Source of the DNA: Minisyncoccota bacterium
GTDB taxonomy: Bacteria > Patescibacteriota > Minisyncoccia > UBA6257
Direction of reading: 5' to 3'
Length of the DNA stretch: 35,780 nucleotides
Assembly: GCA_041654015.1 (NCBI GenBank)
Contig: JBAZEI010000003.1
Coordinates: forward strand, 1 to 35,780
In this document: in pieces, positions 2,608 through 31,545 of the stretch
Layout: each line of letters starts with the position of its first letter
Numbering within the stretch: the stretch's first letter is position 1
Program-made: the position numbers and the translations under genes
Notes under the pieces: model-generated
Told to the model about the DNA's origin: nothing
Seen by the model: the letters and a program-made list of their open reading frames with translations, nothing else
The model's database searches: none

Positions 2608-3594
2608 TTAAGCTTTGCCAAAAGGGCTTTCCTCTTTGTATTTTTTATACTTTATGGGCTCAGGTGTGATCTCCTCTTGCTTTTTTTCTTGTTCCATTTC
2701 CTTTAATTTAACATCAAGCACATATGGTTTTTTGGCTGTTGATTTTTGAGGAATTTTCCCTTCTTTGAATTTTGTTTCCCGGCTAGAGATAATTGTGGAA
2801 GCTTCTATCGGAGGGATGGGTTTTATTTTTGGCGCTTCTTCCTCTCGCGCTTCAGGCTTTTCTCCACTTTGTTTTGATTTAAGCACACTTTTCATTTCTT
2901 CCACAATCTTTGGCTGGGGGTTCTTCTTAGCCATTGCTTCTAAAAGCTTGTTGCGAATTTCTTCTTGTTGAGTAGGAGTGGTTTTTGGGGCAATAACTTT
3001 TTTTAATTCATTAATTTTGCTGATAGGTTTTTCCACTTTTATCTCGGTAGGTTCAGGAAAAGAATATTGAGAAATGGTTTGCTGAGGGGGTTCTGAGGAT
3101 TCTGGCTTGGGAGAAATTTGTTCGGCCTGTGTTTCAACTAGTTGCTTTTTTTCTTCTTGCGCTTTTATTTCTGTTTCTATAATTTTCTTTGTTTCTGTAA
3201 TTTGTTGCTGTTCCTTTATAGTTTCTTGCGCTGGCGATATTTCTTCTGAGGATAGTGGCTGAGTTTTACTCTCTGGCATTAGTTCCTGCTCTTTTGGCTT
3301 TAATTCGTCTTTAAATTGATTAAAAATTTGCTTTTGGACGAGACCAATAATGATTCTTGATTGAGCAGGCGATATTTTAAGATAAGACTCCACATTTTGA
3401 GTAAAATCTATTGGTGATATTTCGCCTAAAAGGACATTGCCAACCATTTCTGTTAATCGCGTGGTTTGTTCAATATTTAAATTGGTTAAGGTAACTATAT
3501 TTTTTGTGATTTCTGTCAATTCATCTGAAATAAGGAAATCCTGAATTTTTTTAGGCGCTTCAGCGTATCTTTTTTCGAAATTATTTTCATTCAT
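2608..3594 (-). CDS. Hypothetical protein with a structured N-terminal ~100 aa followed by E/K/Q/P-rich low-complexity sequence
   Basis: 328-aa ORF tightly packed (3-5 nt gaps) between the VirB3-like and VirB6-like genes. No recognisable catalytic motif. Confidence 0.6.
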   Translation of the reverse strand: MNENNFEKRYAEAPKKIQDFLISDELTEITKNIVTLTNLNIEQTTRLTEMVGNVLLGEISPIDFTQNVESYLKISPAQSRIIIGLVQKQIFNQFKDELKPKEQELMPESKTQPLSSEEISPAQETIKEQQQITETKKIIETEIKAQEEKKQLVETQAEQISPKPESSEPPQQTISQYSFPEPTEIKVEKPISKINELKKVIAPKTTPTQQEEIRNKLLEAMAKKNPQPKIVEEMKSVLKSKQSGEKPEAREEEAPKIKPIPPIEASTIISSRETKFKEGKIPQKSTAKKPYVLDVKLKEMEQEKKQEEITPEPIKYKKYKEESPFGKA

Positions 3595-3597
3595 GTT

Positions 3598-5946
3598 TTA
3601 TGTTTGGGGCGGTTGCCATATTCCACCTTCTTTAACCCAACCAGGATAGGGAGGCGTTTCCTCGGGGCCTTTATCTTTCTTTTCTTCTTTCGGTATTCCA
3701 ATCCCGCTCGCTTCTCTTAATGTCTGAGAGGTAGGGATTGCTTCCTCGTAGAATTTTTTCTTTGCTTCAATGTCTTTTTCAATAGCCTTGACAATTTTTC
3801 CTTCTTTTCCTCCCCATCTTTCCTCTACCATATCTTTTGGAGAAATACCCTTCCACCATCCTGCTAATTGAGCTGGAGACAAAGTTTTTACTGTTTCCTG
3901 GATAATTTTTTCAAAAGTTTCTTCTCCGATTGCCTCCTGTTCGTTTTTTGTTTTTCCTTCCTTGGCGGCAGCGGCTTTTCTATCCCTTACAGTGTCCTTT
4001 ATAAAGCCGCTAACTTGAGTTTTATCCCTTAGTTTATCAGGTTTGATCCTGCCTAAAGCTTCTACTTTGTTTTTTATGTCATCGCCAGTGTCAACCAGTT
4101 CTCCGTCTTTTATTTTGAAATAATGGGGGGTAGCTTCGGCAATGGCTTTTTTCTCAAATCGAATGTCGTCTTTATTGCGTTTAATAAATTCTATTGAGTT
4201 TTCACCCAGTTCGCCCATACCAGCTAATTTATTAACCAAAGCGACTCTTTTTTCATAAGCTTCCTTTTCTAATTTCGAGGGGAGTTTGGCTTGTTCCAAT
4301 TGTTTTAATGCCCCTAAGCTTACTTGTTCCAACTCTTTTTCATACTCCTTTACTCTTGTTGCTTTTGCTTTTTCTCCGGCAACCAGCATTTCCTGGCCAA
4401 CTCCCCTAAGCAACGGGACACTAGTTAAAGCCTTGCCTGCTTTGGCATAAGTTGGGGATTCTACAATGCCTCCTTTTACCTTTTTCCCTAATAAAGCTCC
4501 GGCGCCGAGGACAAGTTTACTGCCTTGCTTTTGGACTGTTTTAGAGACAACGCCGCCGCTTTGAATCGAAAAAATTAAACCTCCAATTAAGAATACAGAG
4601 AATAAGAAAATATGTATAAATGTGGTTATGGGGCCTATCTTTTCTCCAGCGCTGCTAAAATCAATCTTGTTTATCGTATTTAGAATGGTGATTCCCATAA
4701 AGAGCGTAATTGAAAAAATAACAGGGAAAGTGCACCATTTGATAAATTGATCCCACCAAGTTTTCCAAAGGCCTGCTGTTGCTGGTAAAACCCAGGCGGC
4801 AAAAGCAGCCGGGGCTACACATAAAAGCATCAGAATAAGGCCAGCCCGAAAAATCATTGTGACAAAAATAGCAAACAGAGTGATAATAGAAAATATTCCT
4901 AAGATGATAAGAACTATCATACAGAGCAAAAAGTTTCCCCAACTGTAAGCCCATCCCTCTATACTATCTTGGTCGGCTTTGTCAACAAGCGTAAAGGCGT
5001 ATTTTTCCCCACTAGTGATTCTTTCTGTCTGATAAAGCGTTGTCAACGACTTAGCAAAACTATCATTATCCATTTTTGCTAAATTTAAGAAAGTGTAGGT
5101 GGCAAAATGAGAAATATCTAATATTATTCCGGGTATAATCAAACTAAAATTCACTAACAAAGCCACCACGACAAGCTTCCAAAGCGTGTCCTGCCAGCGG
5201 TATTTTTTAATGCCTAAGATAGTGGCAATGGCGATAAAGACTAAAATTAAAACCAAAGCAAGATTAATGTAATCTCTAAAAATCCCCCAGATTTCTTTTA
5301 CAGAACTATTATTTACAAATCCGCCATAAGTTGCTGGTTCAAGGGCCCAAGTAATCCAGCCAATAAGACTATTTATGATGCCGGCGATCATTTTTCCTGT
5401 TCCTTCCACAACACCTTTTTGGAAAAGGCATAATTGGTATTCAACCCATCCTGACTCCCATACTTTTTTAGATTCACCTTCTAATCCACTACATATTATT
5501 TTAGGTGATTTTTCTGATAATTTTGTTTTATTTTCTGTAAATTCTTTAGTTATAAAACCAAGTGTTGTAGTTGTTCCTTCGCTTACATTTTCATGCCCCA
5601 TATAGATAAAAAGTTCAACAAGACTACATGTATCATGACATACAGAGTTTTTGCCTCCTTGTACTGTTTGATTATCCCAATCATAAATAGATTCTATTAT
5701 ATAGTTTTCATACTTATCCTTCCCTGTTATTTCACAGCATTGATTACACCACTCTTCTTTTATTTTAACCTCGTCATCACCTTGTTTAAATTCAGGGGGT
5801 TTGCTACAATAATCAGCATTTTCATCAAGTGGGATTTTTGCTGCTTGGACTTCCTTTGTTGTATTTAATAAAAGATTGGGACTTATTAGTAAAGACAAAA
5901 TAACAATGCTAAAAACCCCGATTTTTAATATATTTTTTGTTTTCAT
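3598..5946 (-). CDS. VirB6/TrbL-like polytopic membrane protein with a Cys-rich extracytoplasmic N-domain and a long charged C-terminal tail
   Basis: 782 aa. It has a signal/anchor (ILKIGVFSIVILSLLISPNLLL), a ~150-aa domain with many Cys, and at least 6 hydrophobic helices between about aa 200-480. A K/E-rich tail of ~300 aa follows. Position in a VirB3/VirB4 cluster supports the call. Confidence 0.6.
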   Translation of the reverse strand: MKTKNILKIGVFSIVILSLLISPNLLLNTTKEVQAAKIPLDENADYCSKPPEFKQGDDEVKIKEEWCNQCCEITGKDKYENYIIESIYDWDNQTVQGGKNSVCHDTCSLVELFIYMGHENVSEGTTTTLGFITKEFTENKTKLSEKSPKIICSGLEGESKKVWESGWVEYQLCLFQKGVVEGTGKMIAGIINSLIGWITWALEPATYGGFVNNSSVKEIWGIFRDYINLALVLILVFIAIATILGIKKYRWQDTLWKLVVVALLVNFSLIIPGIILDISHFATYTFLNLAKMDNDSFAKSLTTLYQTERITSGEKYAFTLVDKADQDSIEGWAYSWGNFLLCMIVLIILGIFSIITLFAIFVTMIFRAGLILMLLCVAPAAFAAWVLPATAGLWKTWWDQFIKWCTFPVIFSITLFMGITILNTINKIDFSSAGEKIGPITTFIHIFLFSVFLIGGLIFSIQSGGVVSKTVQKQGSKLVLGAGALLGKKVKGGIVESPTYAKAGKALTSVPLLRGVGQEMLVAGEKAKATRVKEYEKELEQVSLGALKQLEQAKLPSKLEKEAYEKRVALVNKLAGMGELGENSIEFIKRNKDDIRFEKKAIAEATPHYFKIKDGELVDTGDDIKNKVEALGRIKPDKLRDKTQVSGFIKDTVRDRKAAAAKEGKTKNEQEAIGEETFEKIIQETVKTLSPAQLAGWWKGISPKDMVEERWGGKEGKIVKAIEKDIEAKKKFYEEAIPTSQTLREASGIGIPKEEKKDKGPEETPPYPGWVKEGGIWQPPQT

Positions 5947-6931: not shown

Positions 6932-7645
6932 ATGAACAAAAAATATAAAAATTTAATTTTTATTTTAGCGATAATCCTTATAATCGTTTTGGTTTTAATT
7001 ATTGTCCTCTCGAAGCAAAAGGAGGAGGCAATTTTAACTTACGGCGGTTGGGAAACAAACATTTATACTGGATTTTATCGGCCGCAACAGGGAGGTTGGG
7101 CTGAATTAATTATTAAGGATGAGGAAGGAAAGGAAAGTTTACAGAGGTCTATTTATTTGGGCGAGACAACTATTGAGGGGGTTCTTTCATATGGAGTAGA
7201 GGTTGACGCCAATCTTTGGGATAATAAAGGGGTTATTCTTCAAATATGGTATGATGAAAGCTCTGACGAGATTGTAAAGATGGTTAGCAAAATGAAGCAG
7301 GGCAAAGAGGTTACTTGTGTAAGCGCGAATCTTATGGAATTGATATTTCCCGCGTTCAAAGATTATTTGCCTTCAGTTTTTACACCGCCTAAATACAGTT
7401 CAGTGAACGATTATAATTATGGAACTTATACAACTGAAAGCGGGAAGACAGTTCAAGTGGCAAAATTTATTGACGAATATCAAACAGAAATTTGGGTAAG
7501 CAGTGAAGTGCCTTTTGGAATAGTCAAAGGTGTTTACTTGCCTACTAAGACAACTGTGGTCAGATTGCGTGATTTTGGTTTGTCTGGAGCAAAACCTGTT
7601 ATTTCCAAAACGGAAATGATGAACTGCATTGCAGGCGCATTATAA
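6932..7645 (+). CDS. Hypothetical membrane-anchored protein
   Basis: 237-aa ORF with an N-terminal hydrophobic anchor (LIFILAIILIIVLVLIIVL). No recognised domain. Confidence 0.55.
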   Translation: MNKKYKNLIFILAIILIIVLVLIIVLSKQKEEAILTYGGWETNIYTGFYRPQQGGWAELIIKDEEGKESLQRSIYLGETTIEGVLSYGVEVDANLWDNKGVILQIWYDESSDEIVKMVSKMKQGKEVTCVSANLMELIFPAFKDYLPSVFTPPKYSSVNDYNYGTYTTESGKTVQVAKFIDEYQTEIWVSSEVPFGIVKGVYLPTKTTVVRLRDFGLSGAKPVISKTEMMNCIAGAL

Positions 7646-7671
7646 ATGTAGCAATGTAGCAATGTAATTAA

Positions 7672-7790
7672 GGGGTTGACCCCCACCTTTTAGAAAAAGA
7701 CGGGGGTTGACCCCCACACCAAACGAGAACTGACTTCGTCAAAATTTAACGCCTTTGGCGTTTTGTTCTCATTATGGTGTGGGGGTTGAC
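7672..7790. repeat. Three copies of a GGGGTTGAC(CCCCAC) motif plus a long imperfect inverted repeat enclosing two small hairpins
   Basis: GGGGTTGACCCCCAC at 7672-7686 and 7703-7717, and GGGGTTGAC at 7782-7790. CCCCCACACCAAACGAGAAC (7711-7730) pairs with GTTCTCATTATGGTGTGGGGG (7765-7785). The inner hairpins are TGAC-TTC-GTCA and AACGCC-TTT-GGCGTT. Confidence 0.7.
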
Positions 7791-7928
7791 TTTTTAAAAT
7801 GCTTTGTTAAAATATTGACAAGGCCTTTTAAAGGGCCTTTTAAATAGCATTGTTATTTCAAAATTAACATTTTTACTTGGAAAAAACAATTTAATAGAGG
7901 CATAAGTATTATTAAAAATCGGCTATTC

Positions 7929-20323: not shown

Positions 20324-20629
20324 TGTTTCACGCACAACATTGTGTGTAACAAAGTGTGAAACATTGTGTGAAACAAAGTGTGAAACATTTTTGAATTGTT
20401 TCACGCGCAACATTGTGTGAAACAAAGTGTGAAACAATATTAACAGAGCGGTTTTTAAAGTTTGGCTCAAAGATTTGGCTTATTTTAGCGCAAACCTGGT
20501 TAGAAAACCAGGTTTTGGCTTTATAGAGCCAAAAATAACTTTAATAGAGGGAAAATGAATCAAATTGTTTCACGCGCAACATTGTGTGAAACAAAGTGTG
20601 AAACATTGTGTGTAACAAAGTGTGAAACA
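20324..20629. repeat. Array of 13 TGTG(A/T)AACA sites in three blocks flanking a ~120-bp hairpin-rich core
   Basis: Ten direct copies at strict 12-bp phasing, starting at 20343, 20355, 20367, 20379; 20415, 20427; 20585, 20597, 20609, 20621. Each block is preceded by an inverted copy TGTTTCACG (20324, 20397, 20566). Confidence 0.95.
20492..20516 (+). terminator. Stem-loop AAACCTGGTT-AGAA-AACCAGGTTT followed by T; possible intrinsic terminator in the core of the repeat array
   Basis: 10-bp perfect stem with a T-run partly inside the stem. A second hairpin TTGGCT-TTATAG-AGCCAA follows at about 20514-20531. Confidence 0.4.
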
Positions 20630-20810
20630 ATTTAGTTTAGCGAATAGTGTTTATTGGGCAATATTAAAAACTTTCTTTGATTAAAATCCAGAGGATTTTA
20701 CAGAATGATTCTCTTCCAGTGTTTCCACCGGCTGTAATTTTTGATGAATTCTTTTCTATTAAAACGAGGCGCAAGGCGCCGAGCGAGGCGAATTCCGTTA
20801 TAAATGAATT

Positions 20811-20998
20811 TTGGTGGACCCGAGGGGAATCGAACCCCTGCTTCGGCAACTTGCCCGCCTAAATTGTTATTTGTGTGGACTTAGCGAGAATCGAACTCGC
20901 ATTTCCGCAATGCGAATGCGGTGTACTACCATTGTACTATAAGCCCAGCAATTTAGGCGGGTGAACGAATGCCGTGTAATGCCACTATACTACGGGCC
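20811..20998 (-). tRNA. Interrupted outer tRNA-like gene (Ala-type acceptor G3:U70, A73, encoded CCA) with a 121-nt anticodon loop that contains tRNA-Ala(CGC)
   Basis: Minus strand: GGGCCCG-TA-GTAT-AGTGGCA-TTAC-A-CGGCA[121 nt]TGCCG-AAGC-AGGGG-TTCGATT-CCCCT-CGGGTCC-A-CCA. The acceptor, D, anticodon and T stems all pair, and the T-loop is canonical. Confidence 0.55.
20875..20945 (-). tRNA. tRNA-Ala (anticodon CGC), nested inside the outer tRNA-like gene
   Basis: GGGCTTA-TA-GTAC-AATGGTA-GTAC-A-CCGCA-TTCGCAT-TGCGG-AAAT-GCGAG-TTCGATT-CTCGC-TAAGTCC-A. G3:U70 and A73 are present. CCA not encoded. Confidence 0.9.
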
Positions 20999-21119
20999 CA
21001 AAGGAATTAGAAATTCTTTTATTATTTATTTGTTTTAAATAGAATAGCAAGAATGATTTTAATTGACAAGCGATAATTCTGGGTGTATATTCGCAATAGC
21101 TTAAAAATAAAAATTAACT

Positions 21120-21587: not shown

Positions 21588-22673
21588 ATGAATATGTTGA
21601 AAGGAAAATTTGTAGTTTGCGCCTATTGTGGTAGAAAGATATATCGATCACTTACTGAATTACGCAGAAAATCTAAAACGGGAGTTTATTTTTGTAATCT
21701 ATCTTGTCATTGCGCTTGGAGAAATAAGCAAAGAAAAAGTAAGAAGAGATTCAAATTACTAAAAAATTTATGGGGATCGTGGTGTAATAGTAGCACTAGG
21801 ACCTGTGGAGTCCTCGGTACGGATGCAAATTCCGTCGATCCCCCATTTTTCTTTCTAAAATTTTTAAAGTCCAAGAAGAAAACTAACGCTTTATTTCTTA
21901 AGCGGCCATCAAAGAAAATTCTTTATAATCTTTATTGGAAAAAGAATTATACTCAAACTGAAATAGCTGAAATTTTTAATGCCACTCACACTAGCGTGAA
22001 GAGATGGTTTAACTATTATAGAATTCCAGTGAAGCGTCGAACTTTATCTTGTGGTCATAATCCTAATACTTTAAAGAATTTAAAATTAGGTCGCACAGAC
22101 AAAGCTATTAGAAAATCGGCAGAAGCAAGAAGAATTTATTCAAAAGAAAAACTCATTGAGAAAATAAAAGATTTTGTTCAAAAAGAAGGAAGAATTCCTA
22201 TAAAGAACGAATTTATTAATAATTCCTTCTATCCAGATTATGTTACTTACAGACATTATTTTGGCACTTGGAATAATGCTATCAAGGCAGCGGGCTACAA
22301 GCCAAATGAGCAATGGTTTACCTCAGGAAATTTATTTGCTAAAGATGGACATAAATGTGATTCAATTTCAGAAATAATCATTGACGATTGGTTGTTTGAA
22401 AATCATATTCCACACATTAGAGAGTATTTATACCCGGAAGGACGATATCGCTGTGATTTTATAGTTGGCGATACTTTTATTGAATTTTTTGGTTTATTTA
22501 ATATTTCTATTGTTCCAAATTATACTGAAATCATTAAAAGAAAAAAGGAAATATGTAGGAAATTTAATATTTCCCTTGTTGAACTCTACGAGAAGGATCT
22601 TTATAGATTAGATCAATCCTTAGGACCAAAAATTGGGGTTCCTTTTGCGTCGCATATTACAACAAAAACTTGA
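21588..22673 (+). CDS. Zinc-ribbon / HTH / homing-endonuclease-associated repeat / PD-(D/E)xK-like nuclease protein; the ORF reads straight through a tRNA-His gene
   Basis: N-terminus CAYCGRKIYRS...FCNLSCHC (zinc ribbon). HTH is YTQTEIAEIFNATHTSVKRWFNYY. GRIPIKNEFINNSFYPDYVTYRHYFGTWNNAIKAAGY is a homing-endonuclease-associated repeat style segment. The C-terminus DSISEIIIDDWLFENHIPHIREYLYPEGRYRCDFIVGDTFIEFFG looks like a restriction-endonuclease-like fold. There is no in-frame ATG after codon 3, and the first in-frame GTG/TTG lies inside the HTH. Confidence 0.6.
   Translation: MNMLKGKFVVCAYCGRKIYRSLTELRRKSKTGVYFCNLSCHCAWRNKQRKSKKRFKLLKNLWGSWCNSSTRTCGVLGTDANSVDPPFFFLKFLKSKKKTNALFLKRPSKKILYNLYWKKNYTQTEIAEIFNATHTSVKRWFNYYRIPVKRRTLSCGHNPNTLKNLKLGRTDKAIRKSAEARRIYSKEKLIEKIKDFVQKEGRIPIKNEFINNSFYPDYVTYRHYFGTWNNAIKAAGYKPNEQWFTSGNLFAKDGHKCDSISEIIIDDWLFENHIPHIREYLYPEGRYRCDFIVGDTFIEFFGLFNISIVPNYTEIIKRKKEICRKFNISLVELYEKDLYRLDQSLGPKIGVPFASHITTKT
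21772..21843 (+). tRNA. tRNA-His (anticodon GTG) with encoded G-1 and C73
   Basis: G(-1)-GGGATCG-TG-GTGT-AATAGTA-GCAC-T-AGGAC-CTGTGGA-GTCCT-CGGT-ACGGA-TGCAAAT-TCCGT-CGATCCC-C. G-1:C73 is the His hallmark. Unusual features: T-loop TGCAAAT (G at position 55) and a D-loop without GG. Confidence 0.75.
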
Positions 22674-24641: not shown

Positions 24642-24925
24642 TTATTTTTAGCGAACCGCTCCTTTGCTTAACTGATTAAAATAATAGCATATACTATTAT
24701 AATTGTCAATAGTGAATGAGATATTATGCTTGATGGCTGAAAATAGTTAGATCCAGTTAATAAACATTATCACAAAATATAATGAATGTCAACATTAATT
24801 AAAAATTAAATAAAAAAAATAAAAAATCAAGAAGATAAAGATAAAATAAAATAATGATAAAATTGATTTTTAAGAAAATAAGAGTTAGAATAAATACAAA
24901 GATCTTGTAAAGATCTTCTTTATTT

Positions 24926-25115
24926 GCAGGTAGAGTATAAGTGGCAGTATGGAACCCTTCCCTGCCTGCCATCGCCTTACGCGGGTGTAGCACAGTGGTA
25001 GTGCAACGGCCTTCCAAGCCGTGGACGTGGGTTCGATCCCCATCACCCGCTCATCGGCTCAGGCAGAAGGCGGGTAGGCAAGGTTCAGGCACGGGCTAGA
25101 GTCCCGTTACCCGCT
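24926..25115 (+). pseudogene. Second interrupted outer tRNA-like gene (Gly-type: U73, C2:G71, loop CTTCC..AA), partly degenerate, containing tRNA-Gly(TCC)
   Basis: GCAGGTA-GA-GTAT-AAGTGGCA-GTAT-G-GAACC[125 nt]GGTTC-AGGC-ACGGG-CTAGAGT-CCCGT-TACCCGC-T. The anticodon stem pairs perfectly and the acceptor pairs 6 of 7 (A3.C70). The T-loop CTAGAGT and G8 are non-canonical. Confidence 0.45.
24981..25051 (+). tRNA. tRNA-Gly (anticodon TCC), nested inside the outer tRNA-like gene
   Basis: GCGGGTG-TA-GCAC-AGTGGTA-GTGC-A-ACGGC-CTTCCAA-GCCGT-GGAC-GTGGG-TTCGATC-CCCAT-CACCCGC-T. Confidence 0.9.
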
Positions 25116-25155
25116 CTTAATTAATTTAATGTTCTAGTTACAGGTTGTATAAATA

Positions 25156-29070: not shown

Positions 29071-31545
29071 ATGGAACAAAAAGAAACAAAAGAAGATAAG
29101 AAAAAAAATAGTTCTCAGCCAATTCAACCCAGAGATATTGGGGAGGAGCTTCAGGAATCGTATTTAGATTATGCAATGTCTATTATTATTTCCCGCGCTT
29201 TGCCTGACGTTAGAGATGGCCTAAAACCTGTTCAAAGAAGGATTCTTTTTGCGATGAAGGAATTAGGGTTGGGCTCTAATGCTAAAACCAGAAAATCAGC
29301 CGCTGTAACTGGAGAGGTTCTGGGAAAATATCATCCTCACGGCGATATGGCGGTTTATGACGCTTTGGTAAGAATGGCTCAGGATTTTTCTTTGCGCTAT
29401 CCTTTAATTAAAGGTCAGGGAAATTTTGGATCAATTGACGGCGATCCACCGGCGGCCCTCAGATATACAGAAGTAAAATTAACCCCTTTAGCTGAGGATC
29501 TTTTAGAAGATTTAGATAAAGAAACAGTAGATTTTTCTCCTAATTACGACGGAACTAGACAAGAGCCTAATTATTTGCCGGCAAAAGTTCCCCAGCTTAT
29601 TTTAAACGGCGTAATGGGCATTGCTGTAGGTATGGCTACCAACATTCCTCCGCACAATATTCAGGAAGTAATTGATGCTCTCGTTTGGTTACTGGGCCAC
29701 AAGGATGCTTCGGTTGAGGATTTAATGAATTTTATTAAAGGACCTGATTTTCCGACTGGCGGTATTATTTTTGGCAAGCAAAATATTTTAGAAGCTTATG
29801 CTAATGGAAAAGGAAAAATTATTTGCCGGGCCAAGGCGGAAATAATTGAAGATAAAGGCCAGAAAATTATTATTCAGGAAATTCCTTATTTGGTGAATAA
29901 AGCAGAGTTGATTGCTCATATTGCCCGTTTGGTTGAAGAAAAGAGGATAGAAGGGATAAAAGATTTAAGAGACGAATCTGATAAGGAGGGATTAAGGATA
30001 GTGATTGAATTAAAAAACGAAGCGATTCCCAAGAGAGTTTTGAACCAATTGTTTAAATTTACTGATTTAGAAAAAAGTTTTCATTTAAACATGCTCGCTT
30101 TAACCGAGAATGGATTACAGCCGCAAGTTCTTTCAATTAAGGATATTCTGGAAGAATATATTAATCACCGGCAAACTATCATTCGCCGGCGGACTGAGTA
30201 TCTTCTTAAGAAGGCAAAAGAAAGAGCTCATATTCTTGAAGGCCTTAGTAAAGCCATAAATCATATAGACGAAATTATCAAATTAATAAAAGCTTCGGAC
30301 AGCAAAGAAGAAGCTCAGAAAAAATTGATGGTAAAGTATCGTTTTAGCTCCATTCAGGCAAATGCTATTTTGGAAATGAAGCTTCAAAACTTGGCAAAAT
30401 TAGAAAGAAATAAAATAGATGAAGAATTGGCTGAAAAAAATAAACTCATCAAGGAGTATACTCTCATTTTAAAAGAGCCAAAAAAAATTACCGAAATTAT
30501 TAAGAAAGAACTCCAAGAATTAAAAGAAAAGTATGGAGATGAAAGACGCACTCAGGTCCAGGCGCAGCTTCCGGAAGCAATTACCGAAGATGAGCTTATC
30601 CCTTCTCAAGAAGCTTTAATTTCTTTTTCAAAGAGCGGCTATTTAAAAAGAATCAACCCCAGCTCTTTAAGGGGGCAGAAAAGAGGGGGCAAGGGAGTTA
30701 TTGTTTACGAGGCGAAAAGTGAGGAAGATGTTTTGACTTATTTAATTTCTTGTAATACGAGGGACCAAATTCTCTTTTTCACTGATCGCGGGCGTTTATT
30801 TAATTTACGAGCTTTTGAAATCGCTGAAGGCTCTCGTTTATCCAAGGGAAAATCTATTCAAAATTATATCAATCTAGCTCCGCAGGAAAAGGTTGCTGTT
30901 CTATTAAATTGTCCTTCACAACCAAAAGAATTAGACTCTCATTATTTATTTATGGCGACTGAAAAAGGAATTGTTAAAAAAAGTTTGCTTAAAGAGTATC
31001 AGAATATCCGCCGCGGAGGAATTATCGCTTTAAATCTTTCAAAAGACGATAAACTTATTGGCGCTGTTTTAATTTCTAAAGGGGATGAAGTAATTCTAAC
31101 ATCTAATAAAGGTCAATCAATTCGTTTTTTAGAGAATGATACAAGGGCAATGGGGCGTTCAGCTAGCGGCGTGGTGGGAATGAAGGTTTCCGGCGATGAT
31201 AAAGTAGTCAGCTTAATCGCAGTCAAAAAGAATGGACAAAAAAAGAGCCAGCAAGTTCTCGTGATTAGTGAAAATGGATTTGGTAAAAGAACTAATTTAG
31301 GCGAATATCGCAAGCAAAAAAGAGGGGGCAGGGGCATTAAAACAATGAAAATTACAGCGAAAACAGGCAATCTTATAAAATCTTGTTTAGTAGAAGATGA
31401 AGATTCTTTGGTAGCGATTTCCCAAAAAGGTCAAGTTATTAAAGTGCCGCTTCAAAGCATTCCTGTTTTGCGGCGCTCAACTCAAGGGGTAAGAATTATG
31501 AAATTAGATTCAGAAGATAAAATTGCCAGTATTACTCTTTTGTAA
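29071..31545 (+). CDS. gyrA: DNA gyrase subunit A
   Basis: [22 protein letters not shown]...[28 protein letters not shown] (QRDR)...[10 protein letters not shown] (active-site Tyr). C-terminal beta-pinwheel repeats are present, including QKRGGKG. Confidence 0.95.

Follow-up and report, generated by a model that had tools for sequence, protein, structure and literature searches.

We analysed a 35,780-nucleotide stretch of a Minisyncoccota genome (contig JBAZEI010000003.1 of GenBank assembly GCA_041654015.1; hereafter the window), in which a complete tRNA-Gly(UCC) gene lies within the anticodon loop of a second, decaying tRNA-Gly(UCC) gene just upstream of trpS. Comparison with related genomes and with nested tRNA loci from metagenomes suggests that a hairpin-armed cassette carrying its own tRNA has probably replaced the resident gene at this site, the interrupted outer copy being left as a relic and the inner tRNA being processed from a transcript that starts at the resident promoter. 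The cassette belongs to a family with conserved arms that is found in many Patescibacteria, always inside a tRNA gene of the same identity. The TrpS, GyrA, and NusA proteins of the window are of bacterial type, and the closest genomes are labelled Candidatus Pacebacteria, Paceibacterota, or Saccharibacteria; the window represents an AT-rich member of the Patescibacteria (candidate phyla radiation, CPR).

The Gly locus stands out as a GC island of 190 nt (24926–25115; 56% GC vs 18–30% in the intergenic surroundings) that ends 40 nt upstream of the trpS ATG (25156). Its outer 5′ half, GCAGGTA-GA-GTAT-AAGTGGCA-GTAT-G-GAACC (24926–24956), consists of an acceptor strand with A3, G8, a D-arm with one extra loop base, and the anticodon-stem strand; the loop then starts with CTTCC, of which CTTC is assigned to this half. 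The outer 3′ half reads AA-GGTTC-AGGC-ACGGG-CTAGAGT-CCCGT-TACCCGC-T and terminates at 25115; with the gene split between positions 35 and 36 it begins with CAA, followed by the anticodon-stem strand, the variable loop AGGC, a T-arm with the loop CTAGAGT, the acceptor strand, and the discriminator T. These sequences, the CTTCC loop start, and the distance to trpS were read directly from the DNA and are as given in the original prediction. The inner tRNA-Gly(UCC) (24981–25051/52) was called by ARAGORN and scored 72.9 bits with the Rfam tRNA model (E 2.7e-14), in line with its earlier assignment. It is canonical and GC-richer, encodes no CCA, and is presumed to be the working gene. The 55 nt before and the 64 nt after it are made up of the outer halves plus the flanks of the cassette. 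The sequence of the locus was identical base for base in four independent Logan assemblies from runs that contain the organism (SRR28876184, SRR9855027, SRR18595300, and SRR20753439); because these agree, an assembly artefact is excluded here.

An uninterrupted tRNA-Gly(UCC) gene was found at the same spot upstream of trpS in every relative examined (at least eight genomes, L001–L007 and L050–L056 in our numbering of comparison loci; TrpS 75–89% identical), preceded by the same AAGATCTT hairpin and a TTGATT-17-TA.AAT promoter-like block. When the two outer halves were joined, 65 of 72 positions were identical to this resident gene, whose copies in the relatives show only 0–2 mutual differences, all in the T-loop. 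The inner tRNA, in contrast, matched the clade's resident gene at only 48–52 of 72 positions. Because of this difference in identity, we regard the outer gene as ancestral and the inner one as having come from elsewhere; this bears out the claim that the outer gene is a degenerate tRNA of the Gly type with the inner gene nested in its anticodon loop. The tRNA origin of the outer copy was judged by orthology and ARAGORN thresholds, and it exceeds chance because of the orthology, not because of a score. Thus, the outer copy is the resident tRNA-Gly(UCC) gene of the lineage, apparently in single copy. The insert was missing even from the relative with 89% identical TrpS and is therefore species-specific; the insertion occurred recently in the lineage of the window. 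In the closest relative (GCA_028719125.1), a run of N lies just upstream of tRNA-Gly (L050, ~2967–3060).

The decay of the outer copy that had been noted earlier was confirmed by comparison with these relatives. About seven lineage-specific changes were found, including G3>A (creating an A3·C70 mismatch), U8>G, the extra D-loop base, a T>C change in the D-loop, T54>C, and C56>A, so that the universal positions U8, T54, and C56 are all hit. As a candidate functional tRNA, the outer copy has G8, the T-loop CTAGAGT (C54 and A56), and A3·C70, and it retains C2:G71, U73, and G18G19. ARAGORN reported a tRNA-Gly(tcc) cloverleaf for the joined halves only at 80% of the default threshold and was silent at default. 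Judged by these positions, the outer gene no longer looks like a credible tRNA. A Gly(CCC)-in-Gly nest in a contig of 129 kb (Ga0209515_10000149; L206, 642–806) has an outer 3′ half nearly identical to the tRNA-Gly of the window's clade, and its outer 5′ half has the same A3·C70 mismatch as the outer copy of the window, reflecting either shared ancestry or convergent loss of this Gly identity pair.

The insert of 118 nt comprises a 20-nt 5′ arm, the complete tRNA-Gly(UCC), and a 27-nt 3′ flank, and it contains no open reading frame (ORF). Its removal restores the loop CTTCCAA, as predicted; the refinement is that the insertion point can be placed at anticodon nt 35/36 or 36/37 (the slash marks the point of insertion), with a 1-nt ambiguity due to a shared C. 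The 35/36 placement, which gives the outer junction CTTC/CAA (Gly UCC) in the context GGAACCCTTC/CAAGGTTC, agrees with about 10 other members of the nested-cassette family. At this junction the joined outer gene aligned without a gap with its uninterrupted orthologues, indicating that no host base was duplicated or lost.

The two ends of the insert can close on each other. The core of the arm helix pairs 24961–24970 with 25069–25078 (10 bp, including two G·U pairs), and the longer helix of 24956–24970 with 25069–25083 proposed originally is also present, as are the complementary segments CTGCCTG and CAGGCAG; the CAGGCAG in the 3′ flank offers an alternative partner. Two slipped registers of the arms (CCUGCC with GGCAGG and CCCGCC with GGCGGG) were considered and set aside: each pairs perfectly, yet one rules out the other, and both are far weaker than the full register. 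When the inner tRNA was constrained to its cloverleaf, the locus folded at −74.1 kcal/mol, compared with −75.9 kcal/mol for the minimum free energy (MFE) structure, and the remainder formed one long closed helix. At the insert boundaries the folds showed a 4×3 internal loop or a 1-nt bulge, after which the helix was continuous.

We searched for comparable loci with a structural pattern that combines the D-loop motif and T-loop of an outer gene with the T-loop of an inner one, spaced as tandem genes could not be. This pattern matched once in the window and never in 100 shuffles, and it matched at least 120 stretches in one metagenome scan. A filter demanding at least 6 of 7 outer acceptor pairs, at least 4 of 5 outer T-stem pairs, and one complete inner tRNA was passed by about 20 loci (L187, L207, L208, L209, L210/212, L211, L215, L225, L228, L232, L236, L237, L240, L251, L256, L263, L268, L283, L290, and L292), and the nests in L206 and L179 were found by other routes. 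The original prediction had named a lack of other instances, together with a lack of transcript evidence, among its grounds for refutation; the metagenomic nests are such instances. A pattern of two T-loops 30–58 nt apart, tried on viral contigs, was dropped as it matched T-arm-like repeats, coding sequence, and phage tRNA arrays. Overlapping long introns reported by ARAGORN included many false outer genes assembled from neighbouring tRNA halves in arrays, and this output was used only together with the pairing test. The contigs with nested loci are bacterial (38–52% GC), encode LepA, IF-2, PilB/PilM, UvrC, or ClpC, and include one Wolfebacteria group.

In all of the approximately 20 loci, the inner and outer genes had the same amino-acid identity (Ile, Arg, Thr, Gly, Ala, Val, Pro, or Met), and their anticodons were identical wherever the loop could be read. 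The Gly locus of the window follows this rule of same-isoacceptor nesting in the same orientation. Outer copies were damaged in L206, L211, L232, L179, L268, and L292, despite the bias of the search toward intact outers. No common target sequence was found at the insertion sites.

The cassettes fall into families according to their arms. Family A shows clean insertion at 35/36 (CTGA/TAA, CTTC/TAA, TTTG/TAA, and CTTC/CAA) or, alternatively, at the 3′ edge of the D-loop (L283, L232, L211, and L208). Its flanks are conserved across tRNA types (5′ CCYGCCYGCCATAGCCTGA and 3′ TAGGCGATGGCRGGCRGG) and form a helix of ~17 bp, and its arm consensus, 5′ CCYGCCYGCCATAGCCT and 3′ AGGCGATGGCRGGCRGG, is kept across Ile, Arg, Thr, Gly, and Val cassettes. 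The Gly insert of the window fits this consensus in the 5′ arm and at the end of the 3′ arm: its 5′ arm (CCTGCCTGCCATCGCCTTAC) has the form CCYGCCYGCCAT.GCCT.., and its 3′ end (GGCGGGTAGG) has the form ..GGCRGGCRGG, the two pairing inward from the junction. The middle of its 3′ flank is rearranged relative to the family A consensus, with GGCGATGG missing and CAGGCAG added. Family A arms occur in two reverse-complement polarities, CCTGCCCGCC..GGCAGGCGGG and CCCGCCTGCC..GGCGGGCAGG, and in each of them positions 3 and 7 of the helix hold one U·G and one C·A. Family B consists of L228, L237, L268, L210/212, and a second nested locus of the window described below; its arms are CCCCGTTAGAAAT and ATTTCTAACGGGG, and its junctions end in (T)TCA before the insert and resume with CAAGT after it.

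With regard to miniature inverted-repeat transposable elements (MITEs) and other miniature elements derived from insertion sequences, we observed imperfect inverted arms, family copies in many genomes, and arm-only copies (L300, L179, and L236); no target-site duplication and no cognate transposase were found. An arm-only hairpin of 33 nt, CCTGCCCGCCAGTGCCAGGCGATGGCAGGCGGG, is present in at least four intergenic copies in both orientations in the IMG/VR contig L300 and shares a 17-mer with the family A arms. These hairpins sit in CACAGAG/CTCTGTG repeats. L300 encodes methyltransferases, glycosyltransferases, and two Mtd_N (tropism-determinant-like) proteins; no transposase was found in this contig, and the hairpin had no Rfam match. 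A perfect palindrome of 20 nt, CCTGCCTGCCGGCAGGCAGG, interrupts a broken outer tRNA-Ala at the junction of its T-stem and T-loop (L179, 336–355) and a truncated tRNA-Met-like fragment where the D-loop meets the D-stem (L236, 764–783).

The window contains a second nest, a tRNA-Ala(CGC) inside a tRNA-Ala gene on the opposite strand. The recurrence of one architecture within 4 kb had been put forward as an argument against coincidence; the nesting plan does recur, and the Ala nest was confirmed, but the two inserts belong by their arms and junctions to two different families, and the Ala loop is not restored on removal of the insert. When overlaps were allowed, ARAGORN called the outer tRNA-Ala with a 114-nt insert, and the MFE fold of the locus was a nested double cloverleaf (z = −4.65). 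The outer copy is intact, with G3·U70, the T-loop TTCGATT, and an encoded CCA. Its junctions read ...TTCG TTCA/CCCGCCTAAATTG and CAATTTAGGCGGG/CAAG T..., from which a 7-nt loop cannot be rebuilt. The outer gene resembles the plain tRNA-Ala(CGC) of L051 and L004, the inner gene plus its 3′ flank shares 88% identity over 91 nt with the plain tRNA-Ala locus in L054 and L055, and a third tRNA-Ala sequence type is present in the relative L305. Together, these loci read as a series from plain type I (L051 and L004) through the nested form (window) to plain type II (L054). A likeness of the Ala arms (GCCTAAA...TTTAGGC) to integron attC sites was rejected, the boxes being in opposite order in other family B members.

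At the Ala locus of the closest relative, GCA_028719125.1, the contigs end exactly where tRNA-Ala is expected (L304, position 1), and assemblies may fail where tRNA loci are repeated or nested. The window carries at least seven copies of TTTGTTTCACAC (0.24 expected) in the interval that separates the UPF0102 gene from the nested tRNA-Ala (20342–20631, minus strand). This cluster is kept at the same place in relatives (downstream of tRNA-Ala in L051/L053, L304 1–60, and L305 5230–5440). The 9-mer TGTTTCACA departs from the DnaA-box consensus TTWTNCACA at a single base, and the relatives' contigs tend to break there; the cluster could be a replication origin or another protein-binding array.

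Comparison of related nests provided a view of their turnover. L207 (~7480–7900, minus strand) has three layers, a tRNA-Ile in a tRNA-Ile in a tRNA-Ile, of which the outermost has different arms, CCCCGATACTTAAATTTGC and GCAAATTTAGTACGGGG, plus an extra 34-nt hairpin at T-arm position 53/54; in its relative L187 (9900–10250) the outermost layer is half deleted. In each of the multi-layer nests (L207, L187, and L228), the most decayed layer is the outermost. In L228 (minus strand, ~230 nt upstream of the nest at 3586–3767), we found a row of five tRNA-Ala 5′ halves, all of them with the arm CCCCGTTAGA behind them, and only about three matching 3′ halves; layers 2/5 and 3/6 nearly duplicate each other, suggesting that unequal recombination took place within the nest. 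The Wolfebacteria site lies upstream of clpC. Here L187 and L207 (ClpC 78% identical) share one nest with the same arms. In L307 (88% to L187), this 5′ arm leads straight into a single uninterrupted tRNA-Ile of L187's outer type; an older 5′ remnant, now decayed, is present upstream, and the 3′ arm is missing. Other tRNA-Ile sequences occupy the site in L308, L309, and L311, an old 5′ fragment accompanying one of them, and L310 has none. From the comparisons of L187, L207, and L307–L311 and of L228, it therefore appears that nests are made, can persist, and are resolved by recombination between layers, and that tRNA genes turn over much faster than usual at such sites.

On the basis of these observations, we propose the following course of events at the Gly locus. 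The outer and inner genes would be transcribed as one unit from the resident promoter; in a consensus scan, a promoter-like site was found only upstream of the outer gene and none inside the 118-nt insert. The arm helix and the outer stems would close the precursor, RNase P would cut at G1 of the inner tRNA, and RNase Z and the CCA-adding enzyme would finish its 3′ end, where no CCA is encoded; these processing steps are taken from general knowledge of bacterial tRNA maturation. The inner tRNA would then provide all tRNA-Gly(UCC) function, and the outer halves and arms would be discarded as leader and trailer. Such an insertion would be self-compensating, destroying an essential tRNA gene and supplying its replacement, and its outcome would be replacement of the tRNA gene, after which the old copy would decay, be deleted, or be resolved by recombination. 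The cassette may have entered as a hairpin element by DNA transposition, as part of an incoming nested allele that recombined homologously through the tRNA halves, or by an RNA-level route. The same-isoacceptor rule may result from selection, only an insert carrying the same tRNA being viable in a single-copy tRNA gene, or possibly from nested alleles spreading as their tRNA halves recombine with homologous genes.

Several observations weigh against replacement by a mobile cassette. Clustering of the neighbour proteins of 24 nested loci revealed no transposase, integrase, or other recurrent gene beside the nests, none of the nests has a target-site duplication, and arm polarity is unrelated to strand context (gene-strand bias and GC skew); because of these three results, no insertion mechanism is directly supported. 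The idea of a single-stranded DNA hairpin on the lagging strand was likewise unsupported, since polarity does not follow gene-strand bias or GC skew. By our count, only one of the seven outer changes at the Gly locus falls in a stem, although ~58% of the positions are in stems (binomial p ~0.025), and the outer helices may thus still be tolerated or useful. In the nest shared by L187 and L207, whose neighbour proteins are 58–78% identical, the interrupted outer layer is better conserved than the inner tRNA; its changes are all compensatory (2:71, 5:68, 50:64, and 51:63), and the neutral flanks cannot be aligned. This pattern looks like selection on the outer tRNA, which is unexpected for a dead relic. 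Furthermore, the exact family A junctions, with a perfect 7-nt loop or D-arm restored, and the conserved arms would be expected of introns with dedicated machinery.

Accordingly, we considered whether the cassettes are a new type of bacterial tRNA intron, which we regard as possible but doubtful. Here a novel endonuclease and ligase of Patescibacteria would recognise the arm helix, and a nested gene would yield two or three tRNAs of the same isoacceptor, so that the copies are redundant and either may decay, as the outer Gly copy has done. In its fullest form this explanation calls for an undescribed protein or ribonucleoprotein splicing system that reads CCYGCCYGCC and GGCRGGCRGG at 35/36, in the D-loop, or in the T-arm, and for a "matryoshka" operon whose outer Gly gene is starting to die in the window; we hold this, too, only tentatively. 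The exact, duplication-free insertion at fixed positions (35/36, D-loop 21/22, and T-arm 53/54) with no common flanking sequence speaks for it, as does the maintenance of the arm sequence across tRNA types and lineages. So do the compensatory-only change of the interrupted layer in L187/L207 and also in L225/L256, the parallel change of 2:71 in both L207 layers, the CCA encoded by many outers and absent from most inners, and the re-use of the outer 3′ half by the working gene of L307. However, the outer Gly copy lacks U8, T54, and C56 and has the A3·C70 mismatch, in many other outers the anticodon arm is missing or stems are mismatched, and the family B junctions (window Ala, L228, and L237) cannot be rejoined to a 7-nt loop. 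Across ~1.4 Mb of loci, no hairpin-only intron was found in an otherwise intact tRNA. Both arm polarities are seen, and either one includes a C·A mismatch of the kind that a selected RNA helix should avoid; these features point to an element acting at the DNA level. Moreover, the bulge-helix-bulge (BHB) motif is absent, we know of no bacterial splicing endonuclease for such a reaction, and an intron gives no reason for cargo that matches the host tRNA. We saw no evidence of splicing at the Gly locus, and the decay of the outer copy argues against a need for it.

We think it unlikely that the outer halves owe their persistence to a structural role, in which non-decoding outer helices and the arm helix are selected as a closed leader–trailer scaffold for folding the inner tRNA correctly, protecting it from exonucleases, or ordering its processing by RNase P, RNase Z, or RNase III. 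Such a scaffold would be comparable to the processing stems of rRNA or to 23S intervening sequences that RNase III cuts and that are not religated, and it would account for stems that outlast loops. All four outer stems of the Gly locus still pair (6/7, 4/4, 5/5, and 5/5) and loop and tertiary positions are mutated, the non-decoding family B outers keep perfect acceptor and T stems (window Ala, L237, and layer 5 of L228), and both the closed helix of the Gly RNA, close in energy to the MFE structure, and the double cloverleaf of the Ala RNA would suit such a role. In addition, intervening sequence (IVS) elements cut by RNase III have been reported for CPR 23S rRNA (PMC11270868). Nevertheless, plain tRNA genes in the same genomes need no scaffold, the outer halves were wholly lost in the relatives L054 and L307, and the D- and T-loop consensus is kept in many outers beyond what a scaffold requires, in loci that were selected for these motifs. 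An element of known type or an artefact, namely a degenerate group I intron, an archaeal-type BHB intron, a tandem duplication or an attachment-site remnant of an integrative element, or a chimeric assembly, seems to us very improbable. In favour of such an origin, tRNA genes are a frequent target of integrases. Bacterial tRNA genes with a group I intron in the anticodon loop are also known (10.1101/2020.01.27.920355). Against such origins, Rfam cmscan of 24890–25150 with E up to 10 returned only the inner tRNA, the Rfam Intron_gpI model revealed no P3–P9 core, and the insert has merely 118 nt, compared with more than ~200 nt for group I introns. A BHB motif could not be drawn in any of three registers for the Gly, Ala, and L283 nests, the boundaries not being 3-4-3, and the host is bacterial. 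The halves are nested and not direct repeats, no tRNA 3′ direct repeat and no integrase or other recombinase was seen in the neighbourhood, the insert has no ORF, and the four independent assemblies carry an identical sequence. These tests effectively refute a known type or an artefact, and replacement of the resident gene by a cassette remains the explanation that we consider probable.

Table 1. Features of the nested tRNA loci in the window and copies of the arm-only hairpin
Feature	Position	Strand	Basis
Promoter-like TTGATT-17-TAGAAT	24863..24891	+	Consensus scan; comparable block upstream of relatives' uninterrupted tRNA-Gly
Outer tRNA-Gly(UCC) 5′ half, tRNA nt 1–35	24926..24960	+	Sequence; orthologous to nt 1–35 of L001, L004, L050, L051, and L054 tRNA-Gly
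Cassette 5′ arm CCTGCCTGCCATCGCCTTAC, 20 nt	24961..24980	+	Matches 5′ flanks of L283, L208, L225, L206, L251, and others
Inner tRNA-Gly(UCC)	24981..25051	+	ARAGORN; Rfam RF00005, 72.9 bits
Cassette 3′ flank CATCGGCTCAGGCAGAAGGCGGGTAGG, 27 nt; final 10 nt = 3′ arm	25052..25078	+	Sequence; enforced fold
Outer tRNA-Gly 3′ half, nt 36–73	25079..25115	+	Sequence; differs from relatives' 3′ half in the T-loop alone
tRNA-Ala(CGC) nested in tRNA-Ala	20812..20999	-	ARAGORN, Rfam, fold; family B arms and junctions as in L228, L237, L268, and L210/212
Ala outer 5′ half	20999-20966	-	
Ala TTCA + 5′ arm CCCGCCTAAATTG + CT	20965-20947	-	
Ala inner tRNA	20946-20876	-	
Ala 3′ flank with arm CAATTTAGGCGGG	20875-20854	-	
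Ala CAAGT + outer 3′ half + CCA	20853-20812	-	
Hairpin copies of CCTGCCCGCCAGTGCCAGGCGATGGCAGGCGGG	L300 3536-3568, 4518-4550, 6462-6494, 10437-10469, 11419-11451; L297 1610-1642		

Some further features of the window and its comparison loci were noted. The GyrA of L054 (9906–13682; 1258 aa) contains an intein with a LAGLIDADG domain, which is absent from the GyrA of the window (29071–31545; 824 aa) and from L050/L051. A 361-aa ORF of the window (21588–22673) without an NCBIfam match overlaps tRNA-His (21773–21844) on the same strand; because of this overlap, its real start is placed downstream. L226 carries tandem partial repeats of the 3′ third of tRNA-Lys (5023–5193; T-arm, acceptor, CCA, and TTTCC.CCTGCCTTCGTTG), which are a different kind of tRNA-fragment repeat and possibly represent stacked attachment sites.

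Bacterial tRNA genes are generally counted among the simplest genes and the most stable ones, with rare group I introns as their only known interruptions. The nests described here represent an architecture that recurs throughout a bacterial radiation: a very small cassette with hairpin arms interrupts a tRNA gene and brings the substitute with it. They point to an undescribed mode of invasion and replacement of tRNA genes in bacteria. tRNA-Ala(CGC) and tRNA-Ile(GAU) differ strongly between close relatives, with nests built, stacked, and resolved, and tRNA genes may turn over faster than assumed at fixed chromosomal sites. If the cassettes are selfish DNA, they would follow a new strategy of destroying an essential gene while supplying the substitute; if they are introns, they would imply an undescribed bacterial pathway of tRNA splicing. 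For annotation, standard tRNA finders give only the inner gene, miss the interrupted ones, and can mis-call chimeras, and assemblies tend to break at nested tRNA loci. The nests also offer living examples for the debate on the origin of split and intron-containing tRNA genes.

We found no description of such genes in the full text of PubMed Central and bioRxiv, subscription journals lying outside that scope, and compared them with known systems that share some of their features. Archaeal BHB introns likewise lie in or near the anticodon loop (and also in the D- and T-arms), have clean boundaries without duplication, and can encode a small RNA, the intron of archaeal tRNA-Trp encoding a C/D box small RNA. 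Unlike them, the present inserts have a bacterial host, no BHB, position 35/36 instead of 37/38, and a complete tRNA of the same isoacceptor as cargo; their arms are conserved in sequence and not in shape alone, and splicing would be unnecessary at the Gly locus. The split tRNAs of Nanoarchaeum equitans have halves bordered at the anticodon loop by a GC-rich complementary zipper of 12–17 nt, whereas here the halves presumably lie in one transcription unit and enclose another tRNA, the context of an archaeal splicing endonuclease is absent, and the outer copy is decaying. Bacterial group I introns (tRNA-Leu, fMet, Ile, and Arg) are also mobile intervening sequences inside the anticodon loop of bacterial tRNAs, but the Gly insert of 118 nt has no ribozyme core, carries a tRNA, and ends in simple imperfect hairpin arms.

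Integrative elements that target tRNA genes (phages, integrative and conjugative elements, and genomic islands) similarly compensate for the damage with a copy of the disrupted sequence. They span kilobases, encode an integrase, and duplicate only the 3′ part of the tRNA, as a direct repeat, whereas the cassettes have 110–135 nt, are free of protein genes, and bring a whole, nested tRNA. The IVSs of 23S rRNA and the repetitive extragenic palindromic (REP), REPIN, and MITE elements are short, helix-bounded, protein-free insertions in loops of structured RNA, and arm-only copies are found in L300, L179, and L236; as in the IVSs, the RNA may be left unligated after removal of the insert. No gene is carried by IVS and REP elements, however, and the host rRNA works in fragments. 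With respect to REPs and MITEs, the cassettes differ in that no target-site duplication and no REP-associated tyrosine transposase (RAYT) or other transposase was seen beside the nests, and in that their arms, one rich in pyrimidines and the other in purines, are not self-palindromic. Together, the combination of a protein-free cassette of ~110–135 nt, conserved hairpin arms, and a whole tRNA nested in its bacterial cognate tRNA gene is matched by none of these systems.

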